A program made the position numbers and the translations under genes. The notes under the pieces are model-generated. The model saw nothing but the letters and a program-made list of their open reading frames with translations, searched no databases and had not been told where the DNA came from. A stretch of 64,000 nucleotides of DNA from a phage: sequence record PV805633.1, one strand, 5' to 3'. Shown one piece after another: positions 37,204 through 56,952 of the stretch (within the stretch, counting starts at the first letter, position 1; each line of letters begins with the position of its first letter).

Positions 37204-39158
37204 TTAAGGCATTTTCACATACCCAGGTATGCCTTGGGCTTGGCGTATATACCGTATAGCACGCTCCTGGTTTTCTTTCTCAGCCTCCCGATCTACGGAA
37301 GCCTGTGATCGAAAGTTACGAGGAGCCAGGTTTTGCGGATCAGCCTGTACCTGCCCCTGAGCATTTTTAAGCATTGCAGCAGCTCTAGCAACAGCCTCCT
37401 GTCGTGCAGGTAACAGTGCAGTAAGTGCAGTCTGACCTGTAGCAATCTTATTTGGGTGTTTGACAGTGCAGCTACGGCAGCATCATATGCAGTCTGTGCT
37501 GCCTGAATATTCTGCATAGCCTGAGCACGACCAAGGTTACGTACACTTGCTTCAAGGGGTTCACCACGTTTTAACCCCTCAATCATTTGGTCTACCTGAC
37601 GGTCATTAAGTCGCAAGCCATTACCGGCTTCTGGGGTTTGCCCTATAGTTAGATAATCAATAAGACGTCCTGTATTACTTTCCGGTACGTTAGTCATTGC
37701 ACGTTGAACAACAACACCTGCCATAGCAGGAGATACATTAGCACGCTGAGCAATATCATTGATACGAGCCACAACCCATTGTTTATCTGCCCCCTTAAAG
37801 TCACCCTCTAGTAATCTGTTAGCAACTTCCCCAACAGTAGAAGTGTCATTTAAGGCAGGTAAATAATCAGGAGCAATACTTCCAGCATTGTCCTCCATAG
37901 AACGAGTACCAATCATACCGGTAGCCAGAGTAGATACTGCCTGATTACCTTGGTTATTCTGAACCATAGCTAGTGGGTCAGCCCCTACTTCAGCTTGGGC
38001 AATAACAGGTTTCATCTCTTCCCAAGTCATATCCTTATAAGCACCTGGAGTAGAGTTAGGCAGAGCAGCCCAAGTATCTTTAAGGTTACCGTTCTTACGG
38101 GCCTCGAAGATAGCCCTACCAATCTTATCCTGGTTCTCAGGAGAAAGAGGCTGGCTTTGCCAATCTGGACCAAGAACTTTAGGAGCGAAGTCTAGCAGAG
38201 TAGCTTGGTTAATCTGGAATGCACCAACAGGAGAAGCACCCTGCTTCGACTTCATACTATCCTGATGCTTAATTACATCACCAATACTCATTTGAGTAAT
38301 AGGAGTAGATGTACCAGCAAACTGGTAAGTAACATCATAAGGAGAACCCTGACGAGTACCAGCAGTACCTGGGGCAGACGTAGCACCAACATTGTTACCG
38401 TAAACACCCGGATATGCTCGTGCAAGCATTTCCTGCAAACGTGCCTGTGCAACCGGAGACAGATGCTTACTATAAGATTCTGCCAGAATACGGGCATCGT
38501 CAGCATTCTCAGCACCACGAGTAATCAGTGCCATTACCCCCGTAGCAGCCTGACTATCAGCATCATTACGTTGAGCAACACCTAAATCAAAACGATTCTG
38601 TGCCTGATTAATAGCCTGACCACCCTGACCTTGAAGACGACTCAGCATGTCCAATTGCTGGTCAGCAGGGAGTGCAGACAATGCATCACGGGTCTGACTT
38701 AATGCAGCATTAATACGGTTCTGGTCACCCGACTGATAAGCCTCAGACAGCAAACGAATAGCAGGGGAAGCATTATCTAATGCAGTGTTAGTATCCCGTA
38801 AACGATCAAAGTTATAAGTATTGTAGTCATTGGTTCCCTGCTGACCTTGTTGAGTCAACAGTGTACCTGCTCGCTCATCAAGGTTTTGGAGGGTACGCTG
38901 GTTTATCAATGAAGGGTCAACCCCCTGAAACAGTGCACCAGATGCCAAAGCATTGCGGTACTCAGTAGGGTCTTGGTACTGCATAGCATTCATCATGACG
39001 GCATTGCCAGCCTCCTGCTTGGCAGCGTTCTGGAAATTACCCAGTGCATCACTTAAGCCGGAGGTGGCGTTACCAATCATGCTACCAAATGTGCGAATGC
39101 TGTCACCAACTCCAGAGAAGTTAGGTGCATCAACATTTCTCCACGTTATCTGAGCCAT
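37204..39158 (-). CDS. virion protein (N4 gp51-like), Gln/Ala-rich; reading frame interrupted by a 1-nt indel near 37451-37453
   Basis: 621-aa track ORF ends in R/L-rich out-of-frame sequence; alternative frame gives a coherent C-terminus ending ...GIPGYVKMP at 37204; AGGAAACC SD before ATG 39158. Confidence 0.65.
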
Positions 39159-49010: not shown

Positions 49011-49511
49011 CTATTCAAAAAGTTTACGGTCAGCCTGAATTTGCTTACCCAACTCAATTAGTTGGTTGTCACGGAGTCTAACAGTTGCCCGGAGTTCTTC
49101 AACCAAACGTCTGCCTTCTTCAAGACTGTTGTCGAGTCTGGCTGCATGGCTTGCAAGACTTCTGCACTCAAGGGTTCCGGCTTCGGCTTGACGTTTATAT
49201 ACCGATGCTCGTCTTTCAGACTGTTGCATCCGGCTGTCGTAATCACTGCTAACGCGAGCAAGCTCGCTTGCGTAATTACTCTCAGCCGTCTGCAACCGGG
49301 AAGTAAGTAACCCGACTTCATAACTATGGTTTCTTTGGAGAGCATTGTATTTGTCCTGTAGTTTTTGTGTTGCCTTCTGGTCTTCAACCTTTTGAGCATC
49401 CCATCTCTTTTGGACAGTAGACTGTCCATTGGAATTGCCCCAAAAGTAAATGGTGGCCCCGAGGACCACCACCAGAAGATAAGGCCAACCTTTAGAGATT
49501 AGCATCTTCAT
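49011..49511 (-). CDS. Rz-like i-spanin (N-terminal TM helix, coiled-coil periplasmic domain)
   Basis: [27 protein letters not shown] followed by a charged coiled-coil region; GGAGG 7 nt before ATG 49511; contains an embedded lipoprotein ORF. Confidence 0.65.
49058..49321 (-). CDS. Rz1-like o-spanin lipoprotein embedded within the Rz gene in another frame
   Basis: Signal peptide with lipobox-like ...[12 protein letters not shown], Pro-rich mature region; wholly inside Rz. Confidence 0.55.
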   Translation of the reverse strand: MKSGYLLPGCRRLRVITQASLLALAVITTAGCNSLKDEHRYINVKPKPEPLSAEVLQAMQPDSTTVLKKADVWLKNSGQLLDSVTTN

Positions 49512-50126
49512 TACATGCCTCCAGTGGTACATTACCGATTCGGTTAGCTACCCAACCATACGTAAAGTCTGGCATGTTCAATGAGGTGTAGTGGTTCAAT
49601 TGTTTAGCATCAAGCAACTTAATCATTACCTGACATGCTGCAACTTTGCCTCGTTTTTTCTGTAATGCTTTATATGCATTAACAGTACCTGCACCGACTT
49701 TACCATCAACTTGTATTTTAGGGTAGTCTTTGCCATCACGGGACATTTCATTAAGGGATTGCTGCAACCACTTAGCTGGTCTGGTTACACCGGTATTAAC
49801 ACCAGCATCAACCAGTTTGTGTGTTACAGCAGGAGATATATCAGCGAAGGCTACGAAGTTAGGCTTAATAACGTAGTCATCAATGTATATCTCAGCAGCC
49901 ATTTCTTTCGATAAACCCTTCATGGAACCATCCCAACCATACTCAGTAGCCAGAACTTCTTTGTGAGACTTAGCTACTGATTGGGTAATACCATGATTGG
50001 TTTCCCCACCTGGGTCACGAGGATTGTTTACGTACCCCCTTCCATATAGAACACTGCCCCCAGAATAGCAGCGATAACTCCTCCCACCGCACCCCCTTTT
50101 GCAGCAAGTTTCTGTTTAGCTTTCAT
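49492..50126 (-). CDS. GH108 N-acetylmuramidase endolysin with PG-binding domain and N-terminal Gly/Ala-rich TM (SAR-like) segment; frame broken at a C5 run (50035-50039)
   Basis: Frame 0 from ATG 50126 encodes MKAKQKLAAKGGAVGGVIAAILGAVFYMEGGT*; the -1 frame continues with the family motif GYVNNPRDPGGETNHGIT and the track ORF 49492-49923; combined length ~210 aa. Confidence 0.65.
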
Positions 50127-50376
50127 GGGAATCTTCCTTTGGATGGAAACGTATTAGTCTGCCCACAATGTTTAAGGCAAACAGTGCGATTGTAATACTG
50201 GAACCATGTGGAATATCTTCAAGGATGTGACGTGGTAGTCCTGTTAGCATTGGTTGGATAATATCTACTGTAGAAAACAGAATTAATCCAAATGCACTAA
50301 TCTGAACAGATGCCCACTTCCAGGACTTCTTCCAGTTAGGAACTAGCCCTATTTTTCTTTTTAGCTTGCGAACCAT
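50116..50376 (-). CDS. holin-like small membrane protein (2 predicted TM)
   Basis: GGGAGA 8 nt upstream of ATG 50376; hydrophobic segments WASVQISAFGLILFSTV and SSITIALFALNIVG; directly upstream of the endolysin. Confidence 0.5.
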   Translation of the reverse strand: MVRKLKRKIGLVPNWKKSWKWASVQISAFGLILFSTVDIIQPMLTGLPRHILEDIPHGSSITIALFALNIVGRLIRFHPKEDSHES

Positions 50377-50693
50377 GCGAATATCTCCCGTCTTGCAGCA
50401 GCCAATACACCAATAATTGCACCTGCCCCAGCCCATACCCACTTACCAAAAATCCCAGCACCTGCAACCTTATGTTTGATGGTGATGAACTCTTCAATGG
50501 TAGGTTCGGACTTAGTGATGCTCTCCTCTACCCGTTTAAGTCGGGTACTGAGGTCACCCATAGACTCGCTTAGCTTTTTAATAGACTCTTCCATTTTCTC
50601 CCTATCCCTCGATTCACGAGTTTGGTTTTCGAAAATGTTTCTCAGTCTCTCTTCAAGTCTGGCTAGAGTTACGTTATCTGGTTCATTTCCCAT
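50361..50693 (-). CDS. lysis-associated membrane protein (coiled-coil N-terminus, C-terminal TM helix)
   Basis: 110 aa; C-terminal GIFGKWVWAGAGAIIGVLAAA; first gene of the lysis cluster. Confidence 0.5.
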   Translation of the reverse strand: MGNEPDNVTLARLEERLRNIFENQTRESRDREKMEESIKKLSESMGDLSTRLKRVEESITKSEPTIEEFITIKHKVAGAGIFGKWVWAGAGAIIGVLAAARREIFAWFAS

Positions 50694-50895
50694 AGGGATT
50701 TTCTCAGGTTAGTTAAGTCGTAATTGACTAAAACAGTCTACCTAATGACTTGTTTTTGGTACAACAAAACCCACCCCCGCAACCTAGTTGGGCTGGTTAA
50801 AGCCTGAAATATGGAACAGCAGTCACCAAAACAACAAAGACCATACTTAGGATTGAGACAACCATATGGGTGGCTATATGCGTATAATATTTTTA

Positions 50896-50919
50896 GGGAG
50901 CAAGTATACACCTGCTCCC
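50896..50919 (-). terminator. terminator-like hairpin between the tailspike gene and the lysis cassette
   Basis: 7-bp stem GGGAGCA/TGCTCCC with 10-nt loop; the + strand AT-rich tract 5' of the stem (50882-50895) is the 3' flank on the minus strand. Confidence 0.35.
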
Positions 50920-50938
50920 CGGAGCTATCTCAGAGCCA

Positions 50939-53479
50939 TCAGAACACAAAATCCAGTTGCATAAGCTGCTTCAACTGAATCTGCACGGTACTATCCTGGG
51001 TTACTTCCGGAACAGTTAAGCCAGAAACACCGATTGCAAAGTCCGCAATGAACCCGGTAGTAGGATTCCTTACTATATCCGCCCCAGTACCCCCAGAACC
51101 TGTACTTGCAAACTGAGTCTGCTTAGAACCAAAAGCATTACCTGTACCTGCAATAACTAGTTGCCATACACCCCTGCCGAGCGTACCTGGAATACTCAAG
51201 CTACCTGAACCAGCAGCACGGAATATCTTGGTATTCTCATAGAACATACACTCTTGCAACGTGCAGGTACTTCTCTGCCCGGTACTCAGTACCTGATTAC
51301 CCTGGAAGCTAAAGTTAGTCTGGTCATTCAGAACGAAGTCGCAGAGCATGGATGCTTGCAACTGCACGTTCATATCCAGAGTGTTGGCATGTGCAATCAG
51401 GGACTTAGGAATGCCTCCAATACGATAACCGGGGGAGCGGTAGTTCAGGTTCAGCGTGTTCAGTTGCTTAATACTGTTACCCACCAGCTTAACGGTTTGC
51501 CCACGATATACTTCAGTTGCGTTGGTGCCGGCGTTAATCATGACACCTTCTGCTTTATTGCTGGCGGTTAAGCACTTAAGCACTACAGTATTATGACTTA
51601 CGTCAATATCCTGGTACACCTGGTATGCGCTATCGCCACCTCCAGTTGATATAGCTACCCCATCAAAAGCTCTAAGCTCGCAATAGTTGTTGTGAATCTT
51701 AACAAAGGGGTTCGGATACGTCGCTGCCGTAGCCTCCCCACCCCCACCTACATCGATGCTGCGGGTGTACCTGCCGCCCGCAAGCGGACCGGTACTGGTA
51801 CTATCCGGAATATCCCTGGAGCGCACATAGTTGTTAGAGATTATGAGGTTATATGGTTCATAGTTTGGGTGCCAGCCTGAACCACATTTAGCGTAGATAC
51901 CGACTACGCCATGCTCCAGGCAGAAGTTATCAGTGATAATTAACTGACCCCCACCGTGAAAATCGATGCATTTTCTACGGCAGTTAAAAACGAAATTGCG
52001 GCTGGCTGTTATGTTGCGTATTCTCCTGTTTCTACCATGTCCGATGCCATAGCCAGGGTCAAAGGATGCATTCAAATCATCAGCACCGTTCGGGTGTCCG
52101 ATGTTGCTAATTACATTATCAAAGTAGCCCATTTTGTAGCCACACAGAACACCTATACCGTTTGAGTAACAGTTGGTTATTGTGTTCTTTGAAATAATAA
52201 TACCTTCTGGAACATCGCTTTCATTTGGGTAGTCCGCCATGTCCGGTGAGGCAATATTTCTTATGCCAATCCCAACACCTGCATAGTTAAAGCCAGATAT
52301 CTTACACCTTTCAACGGTTATATTTTTACAAGCTCTTTGAATCTTAACACCGCAACTCCAGCTGCCAATATACCCGCCAAGAAAAGTACCCCAACTGCTT
52401 TGGTAGCTTCCTGTTGGATTACCCGCACTGTCATAGGATGGGAATTGTCCGGACACCTCATTAAATGCCCCTGTGTTATAACTAGAGGTATCAACTGAGT
52501 TATTTGGTCCCAACACATTAACTCCACCGGCTGTATTGTAGCCAAATCGAGATTCTCCTTTCTCTGCATAACCAGTAGGCGCATCTATAGCAGGGAACTT
52601 GTTAGGGCCACGCACTGTTACAGACACAGTCACGTTCCGGCAATTTACAAGGGCAAGCCCATCCAGTCCGTGCGTATTCACAATTATAGTGCCGTTGGAG
52701 ATACGAATACCTTCCTTATTTACCAGTGCCAGACACGGACTGTAGTTACGTGTACCGTCGCTGAAGTCAGGCTCAGTAGGGTACGTAGAAGCCAGTGCAG
52801 GATTTTTCGAACTAAATACGTCTTCCCGCCTAAATCAATATCTCCAGTGGTGGCGTCGAAACATGCCTGCACTGCCAACGTATCGTCGGCAACGCCATCA
52901 CCAACCGCCCCCCCATCCACGTGGATCGCCATTATCACGCCAGCGAGCCATTTGTAGTTCGGGGTATTTTGTTGCACCTTCAGGGTCTGAAATCTGTCCT
53001 CGTAGTACCGCATCCCCAACACTCACCCAAGCACCCAGACCAACGCCACCAGAAGTTTCGGGGGTTGAATCAGCAGGAACCTCTTTAGGTAATGCTCCAT
53101 CCCAACGGTACTTACCATCAGTGAATACAACCAGTTCATTCTTAGTATTAACTGTTACACCAGTAGCAAATGAACCAGGTAGGGTTACATACTCTTCACG
53201 AGCAACAGCCAGTGCACCTAAGTCCACACTACCAGCAGAATGAACTAATACTCCAGCAGGGCTAAGACTTACAGCAGTAACCCCTGAACCAATATCAGCA
53301 GGTAAGGAATAAGCACGCTGTGACGCTTTGTCATAAATGACTTTGTAACCAGTAAGCAGAGCACCCACTGAGAAGTAAACAACTTCCGATTGTTTAACCC
53401 CAAAGTGACGGGCTACTGCTTGTTTGTTGGTTAATATTCCGGTTGATCCTCTTCCACCTTGTGAGAATAATTCGTTCAT
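50939..53479 (-). CDS. tailspike/tail fibre protein with right-handed beta-helix (pectate-lyase-like) domain; split into three ORFs by two single-base homopolymer frame breaks
   Basis: Pieces 52898-53479, 52720-53022 and 50939-52681; beta-helix entry motif GAVGDGVADDTLAVQA in the middle piece; AAGAGG SD before ATG 53479. Confidence 0.65.
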
Positions 53480-53528
53480 GTAAACCTCTTTGTTTTTCTA
53501 TAAGAAACTGCCCCGAAGGGCAGTCTGT

Positions 53529-56252
53529 TTAGCCAATGGACATACGGGAGTTAGCGAAATCATACGCATCTTGCTTTTTAGCAAACTGCGTTACGAAGTA
53601 GTCGCTGATACGAATTACACACCCGTTCGTTGACTGCAACTTAAGACGGCAAGTTCCTGCTGTTGCCGCCTGTCCTACACCGAAAGTATGCACCCATTCT
53701 CCTGGTGATGTGTATAGCCCCCCAAGAGGTACAGAATCCGCAATAGATGCCGTAACATCACCACTTACCAGTTTAAGACTGCACCCCCATACAATCTGAT
53801 AATACTGCGCTATGTTAGCCACTGGTTCACTCAAGAATAGGGTATATCCGGCAGGTATTACTAACTGAGCGCAAGTATCGCTTAACACACCGTCAGTAAC
53901 CGATGTGGCGTCTACGGTGCTCGTCCCGACAAACGCCCACGGCCCGCTCCCTGAAAAAGATTGTGAGTTTAGTACCGTACCAGTATGTGGGCGCTTTATT
54001 CTTCCGTTCAGCTTTGTACCACGAAGTGACAAATCCAGGTTACTGGCCACAGTGGATGAAACACTCGCCACAGATTCAACGTGAACCTTATCGCCGACGT
54101 AGCCACCTACGATAAGGTCGTGCGCAATAATCTGGCTTCCGTCGTCAACATTGATACTATACACACCAGTCGCGGCATCAAACCTACAGTTTTTTGCCAC
54201 CAGGGTAGAGCTTATCAGCTCAATATTGTTAAAATGGCACCCTTCCGCAACAGTTACCGGAACATTCTCTATTTTTAACTGTCTCGGGGTTTGCGGAACC
54301 CCGTCAACAGTTACTGTGTCTGCGGTGGCTACCAATTCGAACCATACGTTGCTGATAGTGGGCGGTACGACAGGAGCCAATCCATTGCCTTTAAAATAAA
54401 TACCGCCACCAGGGCATGCCTCAATGATACAGTCACGAATTGCTATGCCGTCAAGACCACCACCAGGAGCAGGACCTCCGACAGCGCCATTAAGGTAAAT
54501 GCTGTACGTATTAATTCCTGCAAAATGGCAATCCCTCCATGTATCAGCCCCGACATGCATGCCTGGGTCTGATACCGCCATATGGCCGTAATTACACGCC
54601 AGATAGCTACAGTGTTGGTACGTGTTGCCGATGTTTCCTTTCGGCTTGTAAAATCCAATATCAAGACCGTCAAAGGCAATATCCCTAAAGTTCCATCGGC
54701 CATCAAGATTAGATGATCCAAAAGCTATGCCTGTACCAACAGGGGTGGTTATGTCCCCTTCGATGAGGAAGTTCTGGGCGTGCCGATACTGCCACAGGCG
54801 GGAAGACTCGGTTAGAGTTAAACTTGTTTCCCCGGAGGATGGTTTAAATTTTACCTGATAACCAGTACCAATTATGTTGGCATTTCCCGATGTGTATTGC
54901 CCCGTGTAAGTACCAGGAGTGACCAGGAGATCATCTCGCCATCCAGTTGCATCAATAGCATCCTGTAAGTCTAAGTAATTACCAGAATGTTTAATATCAT
55001 CAAGATTGTCAGCAACAGTTCTCGTCCCATGACCAACGGATGCAGAACCAGTTGTCTGTGAATAGAAGTCCTTAACTTCAGCGATAATACTTTCCTTGGG
55101 AACATCCAATGGTAGTAGGTCAACTGTTACGTTACCGGGGGAATACGTTAACTGACCCTCACTAACAGATGCAATGTAAACGTTATTAGGTAAAGTAGGT
55201 AAGACATAGATGTGTTGGTTAACCACATCATAAATAACCTTCATTCCATTCAGATACTGAGTAGTATTAGTACTCAGTATAACTTCATTCTCCTGCACAT
55301 TAGCAGAACGAGCTACTTCCTGAATGGTACGGTCAGACATAACCAGGGTAGTAGACTCACCACCAATAGTTACAATCAAACGATCGTTGGTAGCCAGAGG
55401 CTCTGTTAAAAGGATACGCTGGTTAGCTGCATCGACTGTATAGGACTTATCAGCCAAACCTGCATAGTAGCGTTCGCCATTCTTGTAGATGGCTGGTACA
55501 GATTCAAACGTATACGGAACAGCAATTACTTGCTCACCACCCGAAGCATACCCACCGTTGTATAGCCAGTTAATCTGAACCCAGTCATTTACGTTAGGGT
55601 TATCTGGAACAGCAGGAGTACCGGTAAGGAACAGATGTACTTCATCACCTGGTTCCAATGGTTGAGCCAGAGTAACAGTTAGTGAAGCTGCATCATAGGT
55701 AAAACCATAACCAACTAAGTTGGTGTAGCCCCCAATTACAATCATCGGTACACCAACAGTGCCAGCAGGCACTGGGATAGTGGTTTCACCCCCAATAGCA
55801 GAACCATTGTTATATGAATATGGGATGTATGGTGGAGATGCTTTACCATCACCAGAATCTCCACCATCATCTGAATTAGAAGTGGCAACCAAAATCCAGG
55901 AACCAGTAGCAGACTGGTCATCCGGAATAACACCTGTACGGTCACCATCTACATACAGGTAATCTGTAACAACTCGTTTATTGGTATTATCAAAACCATA
56001 CAGACGTACATAGGATGCACTGGTAGGCATGGCCTTCAGTTCAGTTTCTGATTGAACACCTAGTACCATTCCATATTTATTTAAGAAATCATAAATGAGT
56101 TTAAGGTTACCCAAGTTACAGTAAACAGTGCGAACCACATGGTAAGCATTACCAAGTAGTGCATCTACCATTGGGTCGTTGGATCTATTCTGGCAGTAAG
56201 GATTAGACCAATCCTGATTTGCATCGAAGGGGGTATGTGCGTTCATCGCCAT
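53529..56252 (-). CDS. second receptor-binding/tail protein (907 aa) with beta-helix-like repeats
   Basis: Large ORF; Gly/Asn-rich repetitive segments such as ...IAIRDCIIEACPGGGIYFKGNG typical of beta-helix adhesins. Confidence 0.6.
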   Translation of the reverse strand: MAMNAHTPFDANQDWSNPYCQNRSNDPMVDALLGNAYHVVRTVYCNLGNLKLIYDFLNKYGMVLGVQSETELKAMPTSASYVRLYGFDNTNKRVVTDYLYVDGDRTGVIPDDQSATGSWILVATSNSDDGGDSGDGKASPPYIPYSYNNGSAIGGETTIPVPAGTVGVPMIVIGGYTNLVGYGFTYDAASLTVTLAQPLEPGDEVHLFLTGTPAVPDNPNVNDWVQINWLYNGGYASGGEQVIAVPYTFESVPAIYKNGERYYAGLADKSYTVDAANQRILLTEPLATNDRLIVTIGGESTTLVMSDRTIQEVARSANVQENEVILSTNTTQYLNGMKVIYDVVNQHIYVLPTLPNNVYIASVSEGQLTYSPGNVTVDLLPLDVPKESIIAEVKDFYSQTTGSASVGHGTRTVADNLDDIKHSGNYLDLQDAIDATGWRDDLLVTPGTYTGQYTSGNANIIGTGYQVKFKPSSGETSLTLTESSRLWQYRHAQNFLIEGDITTPVGTGIAFGSSNLDGRWNFRDIAFDGLDIGFYKPKGNIGNTYQHCSYLACNYGHMAVSDPGMHVGADTWRDCHFAGINTYSIYLNGAVGGPAPGGGLDGIAIRDCIIEACPGGGIYFKGNGLAPVVPPTISNVWFELVATADTVTVDGVPQTPRQLKIENVPVTVAEGCHFNNIELISSTLVAKNCRFDAATGVYSINVDDGSQIIAHDLIVGGYVGDKVHVESVASVSSTVASNLDLSLRGTKLNGRIKRPHTGTVLNSQSFSGSGPWAFVGTSTVDATSVTDGVLSDTCAQLVIPAGYTLFLSEPVANIAQYYQIVWGCSLKLVSGDVTASIADSVPLGGLYTSPGEWVHTFGVGQAATAGTCRLKLQSTNGCVIRISDYFVTQFAKKQDAYDFANSRMSIG

Positions 56253-56674
56253 CCTCGTTGTTCAAATTTAGTTTCGGTAATTGAAATACTTCCATTAGCC
56301 AGGTCGTAATCAACAACCTCACCACAGATGCTTTCATACGTTTGCAGATACTCTGCTGCTTTAGCGTTAGCTTCAGGAGTATTCAAACCAGTGTGGTAAC
56401 GATAACCCACCCAGTTATGAAGTGCCGTCATTAGCGTGTCAGCTAAATCAACTTCCTGTTCTTCATCACCCGTAAGTACTGGGTGCTTAGCTTGATACGT
56501 TACGTTAAGTGCCTCGAAGTGTCGAGGTCTCATACACTGAATAGTATCAGGCCGTGGAGTGAAAATAGCACGAGGGTCTGAGTCGTCGTTCAGTCTACGT
56601 CGATTCCCAGAGTTATCAAACACATTTAGGATTTTAATAACATCATCCTGGAAAGGCTTCATGAACCCATCCAT
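56243..56674 (-). CDS. virion/tail-associated protein (143 aa); start uncertain
   Basis: ORF track; overlaps upstream 97-aa ORF by 16 nt; no SD close to the ATG. Confidence 0.45.
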   Translation of the reverse strand: MDGFMKPFQDDVIKILNVFDNSGNRRRLNDDSDPRAIFTPRPDTIQCMRPRHFEALNVTYQAKHPVLTGDEEQEVDLADTLMTALHNWVGYRYHTGLNTPEANAKAAEYLQTYESICGEVVDYDLANGSISITETKFEQRGWR

Positions 56675-56952
56675 GATATAAGGATATTGAACCTCAAGAG
56701 TAGGCTGAGTAAATTTGAGTAAGCATATTTGGATTGAAGAGGATAATCAGTACGTCCTTCCTTCATCTCTACAATGCAGCTATTTGTCTTAAGGGGGAAA
56801 CGACTATGAAGTCGTACCAGTCCTTCATTAATAGCTGCCAGTATCTCCGGCTTACTATCTGGTTCAATATCCAGTCTGTCATCCGTGACTGCACCAGTAC
56901 CTTTTAAGGTACTTAGTGCCAAGCCACGGTATACTTCCGATAGTTTCTGCAT
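56659..56952 (-). CDS. hypothetical protein (97 aa); C-terminal ~20 residues look out-of-frame
   Basis: ORF track; may form one gene with the 143-aa ORF. Confidence 0.4.
   Translation of the reverse strand: MQKLSEVYRGLALSTLKGTGAVTDDRLDIEPDSKPEILAAINEGLVRLHSRFPLKTNSCIVEMKEGRTDYPLQSKYAYSNLLSLLLRFNILISWMGS

Follow-up and report, generated by a model that had tools for sequence, protein, structure and literature searches.

In later accounts citing Prokhorov et al. (2017), gp63.1 of phage G7C is described as attaching to gp66 (bioRxiv 10.1101/542787; PMC10743462). The C-terminus of G7C gp63.1 (YP_004782195, PDB 4QNL) is an O-antigen deacetylase (esterase). In the G7C-like phage Alt63, the place of this esterase is taken by a classical O-polysaccharide depolymerase (gp63.1A), which has been cloned and is active (bioRxiv 10.1101/542787; PMC10743462). 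Infection by both G7C and Alt63 strictly depends on an enzymatically active gp63.1 (PMC10743462; PMC6393563), and the relative St11Ph5 can, at low efficiency, infect rough mutants with no recognition of the O-antigen (PMC6393563). A conserved stem-loop has been described between gp66 and the tailspike gene of G7C-type phages, and the published horse phages of this type were sequenced by Ion Torrent PGM and assembled with Newbler (bioRxiv 10.1101/542787).

The DNA analysed here (the window, a stretch of 64,000 nucleotides) belongs, on sequence comparison, to a G7C-like N4-type coliphage, a podophage of the genus Gamaleyavirus. It was 95.7% identical to Escherichia phage G7C at the nucleotide level over 25 kb, and when the G7C proteins were searched against it by tblastn, nearly all of them mapped with their order kept. 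Between the matches to gp63 (50364-50693) and gp66 (55113-56246), which is the location of gp63.1, the window carries a gene that is split into three ORFs (Table 1). The same gp66-type partner lies upstream of it as in G7C and is intact, with a weak Pfam match to Beta_helix. The hairpin listed in Table 1 occupies the position of the stem-loop described for the G7C-type phages.

Several other features of the window were recorded. The segment 60946-61412 aligns with G7C 1-468 as well as with the right terminal repeat, and the sequence then runs into gp1, gp2 and beyond, to 64000. As the window reads straight across the physical genome ends of G7C, the source record would be circularly permuted, or end-joined, relative to G7C. 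For three HNH endonuclease genes of G7C (gp24.1, gp41.1 and gp47.1) the window offers no counterpart (sites at about 2160, 17850 and 23650-23880), a pattern that resembles the presence or absence of mobile HNH genes, and G7C gp41 aligns over residues 1-85 only. ARAGORN found no tRNA gene in window positions 1-64000, unlike the relatives E20, PhAPEC7, SP5M and Bas96, each of which has one annotated close to the gp48 region. At 81-93 lies a T13 run, the longest homopolymer of the window, in a stretch equivalent to the sequence downstream of G7C gp17.

The ORF coordinates given by the first-pass annotation, together with its C7 and T5 runs on the plus strand, were all verified in the sequence. 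Three-frame translation additionally revealed, a point absent from that annotation, that the 193-aa and 580-aa pieces are in the same frame. The reading in another frame is confined to about 105 nt between the G run and the A run. Within this interval the main frame contains two stop codons, by which a compensated pair of frameshifts with the ORF kept open was ruled out. The first break sits where the beta-helix begins, at the motif GAVGDGVADDTLAVQA. The middle 100-aa ORF is protein-like over 35 codons only, and the first part of the beta-helix is missing from the 580-aa piece.

Table 1. Positions in the window of the split tailspike gene, its neighbours and the single-base deletions in other genes
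Feature	Position	Strand	Description
N-terminal ORF piece	52898-53479	-	193 aa
Middle ORF	52720-53022	-	100 aa
C-terminal ORF piece	50939-52681	-	580 aa
Whole tailspike gene, gp63.1 position	50939..53479	-	846 aa after two single-base corrections
First break	52908..52914	-	Coding-strand G7 (C7 on +); homologues G6, one base fewer
Middle segment in shifted frame	52808..52907	-	About 35 codons; start of beta-helix module GAVGDGVADDTLAVQACFDATTGDIDLGGKTYLVRK
Second break	52803..52807	-	Coding-strand A5 (T5 on +); homologues A6/A7
C-terminal frame, contains the 580-aa ORF	50939..52802	-	Predicted right-handed beta-helix, polysaccharide-depolymerase tailspike type
gp66-like partner tailspike, intact	53529..56252	-	907 aa; 67% identity to G7C gp66 residues 1-375
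Hairpin CTGCCC-TTCG-GGGCAG then TTTCTT	53508..53523	-	Between gp66-like gene and tailspike gene; read directly from sequence
gp61 endolysin deletion	50037..50038	-	CCCTCC to CCCCC on +; window only
gp67 virion structural protein deletion	56717..56718	-	GG to G; window only; gene region 56246-56952
gp51 virion structural protein deletion	37452..37453	-	TTCTGG to TT-TGG; window only; gene region 37213-39158

Removal of one G from the coding strand and addition of one A gave a single ORF, as reconstructed, with the junctions ...DPRGWGAVGDGVADDTLAVQA... and ...TYLVRKNPALASTYP...; these reproduce exactly what had been predicted for a correction to C6 and T6. The peptides that span the breaks in the repaired tailspike are ...DPRGWGAVGDGV... 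and ...YLVRKNPALAS.... An exact match of the predicted junctions after a two-base repair is far beyond chance. Runs of at least five identical bases account for just 47 of the 2541 nt of the gene, and both breaks lie inside such runs. Over its 2.5 kb, the gene showed no further stop codon, lesion or sign of decay besides the two breaks.

Homologues were then compared across both junctions, where the repaired protein matched intact homologues with E = 0. The intact tail spike of phage Peacock (899 aa) was 67% identical over 746 aa and aligned ungapped at both junctions; of the 36 residues in the shifted-frame segment, 29 were the same in Peacock. Searches of phage genomes by tblastn matched the Agtrevirus P46FS4 tail spike to residues 1-845 in a single piece (67.5% identity) and the Gloob tail spike over the full length in one ORF (60.4%). 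Two further intact homologues, both metagenome-contig proteins, came from a large protein database: P0001 (813 aa, 89% identity) and P0002 (844 aa, 78%, full length). The single receptor-binding protein of about 845 aa proposed at first pass therefore stands, at 846 aa, since intact single-ORF homologues cross both breaks.

The two runs were also examined in nucleotide alignments with four independent homologous DNAs (Peacock, MII_002 and the metagenome contigs L016 and L014), whose identity to the window near the breaks is 81-94%. G6 and A6/A7 occur in all four, and the combination of G7 and A5 was seen in the window only among these five sequences.

The best local megablast matches to the C-terminal module were records of Enterobacter phages MII and IJM. 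In these records (vB_Ecl_MII_004, L001; vB_Ecl_MII_002, L007; and IJM), the homologous tailspike is divided among 5-10 small 'hypothetical protein' ORFs, with breaks at positions other than those in the window, more breaks and extra indels in the same stretch. They appear, from their sequences, to contain serious indel errors of their own, and were used only alongside intact references. No close relative (90% identity or more) of the C-terminal module was found by megablast against phage records. Exact copies of the 193-, 100-, 580- and 907-aa products were absent from a collection of 15 billion proteins, and scans with patterns permitting both run lengths revealed no second copy of the tailspike allele in IMG/VR or the JGI metagenomes.

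That the locus might hold three genuinely separate genes has a negligible probability. Gene callers would annotate three ORFs, and some Enterobacter phage records likewise have several small ORFs in the homologous region; however, those records break elsewhere, into 5-10 fragments each and with additional indels, whereas the well-annotated homologues are single ORFs. The short protein-like stretch of the middle ORF and the missing beta-helix start of the 580-aa piece also argue against separate genes. A scan of 50600-53700 for promoters and terminators gave nothing above shuffled expectation, ruling out internal start signals that would favour separate genes. Three separate genes were thus excluded by the homologues that span both breaks and by the G6 and A6/A7 runs of the homologous DNAs, and homologues consisting of three genes with matching boundaries, named at first pass as an outcome that would overturn the single-gene proposal, were not encountered. 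On this sequence comparison, 50939-53479 is one tailspike gene, not three.

To assign the domains of the repaired protein, its parts were compared with Pfam and the PDB. Tail_spike_N (PF18668) was found at residues 91-156 with E 3.5e-25 (88 bits against a cut-off of 25). The N-terminal piece is 68% identical to residues 1-174 of G7C gp63.1, with no similarity past residue ~174, and matched the PDB entries 4qnl (residues 1-165, E 1e-71) and 4oj5 (residues 1-204, E 3e-82). Residues 1-~170 therefore correspond to the docking module common to G7C gp63.1 and the CBA120 tailspikes, that is, to an N-terminus of the gp63.1 type.

The 580-aa piece was modelled with AlphaFold2 using 21 homologues (pLDDT 79.5, pTM 0.84). 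The model is of good confidence and almost all beta, with short repeating strands. Its top PDB matches were all beta-helix tailspikes or lyases (Fri1 gp49, HK620, CBA120 TSP2, Sf6 and Det7), with probabilities of 0.92-1.0 but TM-scores of only 0.17-0.34; these low scores indicate that the piece is without a close solved relative. A beta-helix fold for the receptor-binding body was thus obtained from both the model and the PDB matches, and homologues of the tailspike carry PF13229. A characterised close homologue was not found. From the model, the tailspike body is predicted to resemble the beta-helix tailspikes that are polysaccharide depolymerases. By homology to G7C, the N-terminal ~170 residues would dock the tailspike onto the gp66-like spike, and the beta-helix body would bind host O-antigen or capsule, allowing infection to start. 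The same homology suggests that the tailspike probably also cleaves this glycan.

In comparison with G7C gp63.1, the tailspike of the window shares the slot and the homologous N-terminal ~170 residues, but its beta-helix module is unrelated to the esterase of gp63.1. The architecture matches that of Alt63 gp63.1A; here the likeness is one of description, not of sequence, and is taken as a lead. The Kayfunavirus tail spikes (Escherichia phage Peacock, QEG09711; LS2, WFG77622) share 66-67% identity with it across a region of ~746 aa that comprises neck and beta-helix, both break sites included; these Autographiviridae proteins have a T7 gp17-type tail adaptor at the N-terminus, in contrast to the gp63.1/TSP docking module found here. 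The Agtrevirus tail spikes (Salmonella phage P46FS4, YP_009889344; Shigella phage Gloob, UHS65012) have the same N- and C-terminal architecture in one ORF, but sit in Ackermannviridae myophages of ~158 kb as one among several branched tailspikes. The same beta-helix receptor module is present on three different adaptors, in Schitoviridae (here), Autographiviridae/Kayfunavirus and Ackermannviridae/Agtrevirus. Comparison of window 50939-53110 with the sequences L002, L006, L014 and L016 placed the boundary of module exchange at about residues 97-170.

When every G7C protein was searched against the window by tblastn, three more frame breaks were detected, in gp51, the gp61 endolysin and gp67 (Table 1). 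The relatives aligned at these deletions were G7C, E20, PhAPEC7, SP5M, Bas96 and ST4, where each aligns, and the stretch surrounding each site was invariant or nearly so in 4-6 of them. In gp61, the break leaves a 32-aa ORF (50028-50126) and a 143-aa ORF (49492-49923), so that the N-terminal membrane segment is parted from the catalytic part. The T missing from the window is present in six of six relatives, and the 19 bases that flank the gap to the left and right are unchanged among G7C, E20, PhAPEC7, Bas96 and ST4, with SP5M differing by one base. Replacement of this T restored 211 aa. Likewise, one G put back into gp67 restored 236 aa, and for gp51, in which the last ~80 residues are lost, one C restored the full length of 654 aa. 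The three proteins are intact at these lengths (654, 211 and 236 aa for gp51, gp61 and gp67, respectively) in all annotated relatives. It was also observed that the C-terminal part of gp51 is unusually divergent from G7C, with 75% amino acid identity compared to 88% in the remainder.

Outside genes, three homopolymers at 24816, 25148 and 59873 (A6 to A5, T6 to T5 and T5 to T4, respectively) have one base fewer in the window than in all the relatives aligned there. T-tracts located 3' of hairpins make up two of these three shortened runs.

The two tailspike breaks are, on these comparisons, very probably artefacts of the sequence, and the real phage would make one protein of ~846 aa. According to this interpretation, the record miscounts two homopolymers, a true G6 being given as G7 and a true A6 as A5. 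The argument for it is that gp51, the gp61 endolysin and gp67 are also broken by single bases: the window contains several single-base indels found in this record only, in conserved essential genes, and each is mended by one base. Viability is unlikely for a lytic phage deprived of its endolysin and of two conserved virion proteins, and the loss of the endolysin, two virion proteins and the recognition spike at once is not plausible for a strictly lytic phage. The indel errors of flow-based and long-read phage assemblies are similar in being single-base, restricted to one record, mostly deletions and often in homopolymers, and in breaking otherwise conserved genes with no secondary decay; the fragmented Enterobacter phage records display this symptom too. 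Ion Torrent PGM chemistry is prone to indel errors, and the Ion Torrent/Newbler history of the G7C-type horse phages fits the error pattern of the window; this is context, as the window is not tied to that set. A link to the G7C-set phages Alt63, N4G2 and Sz33 is no more than a lead, gene 16 with its diagnostic intron falling outside the 64,000 nucleotides. We infer from the pattern that the breaks are artefacts and not mutations. Four observations count against this. All five frame breaks fall within 37.4-56.7 kb, with none in the other ~44 kb, including the 11-kb vRNAP gene; low coverage is a possibility behind such clustering. Only two of the five breaks, those in the tailspike, are in runs of at least five bases, while the other three are in runs of only 1-2 bases, unlike assembly errors of the homopolymer type, so there is no pure long-homopolymer error signature. 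Homopolymers are also natural hot spots for slippage, and at least one relative, St11Ph5, can do without its tailspike on rough hosts.

These last two points equally favour the reading in which both indels are genuine mutations of recent date by which the tailspike was inactivated, for example after growth on a host for which the spike is not needed, leaving a 193-aa docking stub as the product. The otherwise intact gene is consistent with very recent events, and the low-efficiency infection of rough mutants by St11Ph5, which bypasses O-antigen recognition, makes a real loss of the spike alone conceivable. This reading is nevertheless unlikely. A single frameshift suffices to inactivate the gene, and two independent ones 105 nt apart would be unexpected; the endolysin, gp51 and gp67 are also broken and cannot all be dispensable; and the strict need for active gp63.1 in G7C and Alt63 means that selection against a true knock-out would be strong. 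Less probable still is a phase-variable switch, or a programmed recoding pair with a +1 shift on the G run and a -1 shift on the A run, that sets the amount of full-length tailspike. In principle, exactly the homologue-like protein would result if tRNA-Gly slipped by +1 on GGG-G and tRNA-Lys by -1 on A-AAA-A. The shifts, however, are not conserved, since G6 and A6/A7 keep every homologue in frame, and two low-efficiency events would be needed one after the other. No X-XXY-YYZ heptamer is present, and the stop codon of the main frame comes four codons after the G run instead of adjoining it; stimulatory elements for frameshifting were judged by sequence inspection only. Frequent slippage typically needs tracts of about 8-9 bases or more, and the runs here, of 7 and 5 bases, are below this length. 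The other broken genes, moreover, suggest a general problem of sequence quality. Should G7 and A5 after all be real in a viable phage, for which we see very little chance, full-length spike would be made at a low level by two slips, or be turned on and off by changes in run length, with the 193-aa stub as the default product that caps gp66. Of the explanations offered at first pass (assembly indels, inactivation and phase variation), assembly indels are thus favoured and the other two are not, on the basis of the window-only deletions in gp51, gp61 and gp67 and the shortened non-coding homopolymers.

Judging from the sequence, the split itself most probably has no biological reality. The annotation of the locus should show a single tailspike gene or carry a frameshift flag, and gp51, gp61 and gp67 of the same record need checking. 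If the record were left uncorrected, automated pipelines would give three hypothetical proteins and overlook the host-range determinant. If the breaks were real, they would be relevant to phase variation in phages, although the evidence points the other way; slippage or switching at G7 and A5, if true, would represent a novel means by which a phage adjusts or toggles a determinant of its host range. The repaired tailspike is an ordinary modular tailspike of a known kind, in a new allele, and provides a routine but useful case of receptor-module exchange.
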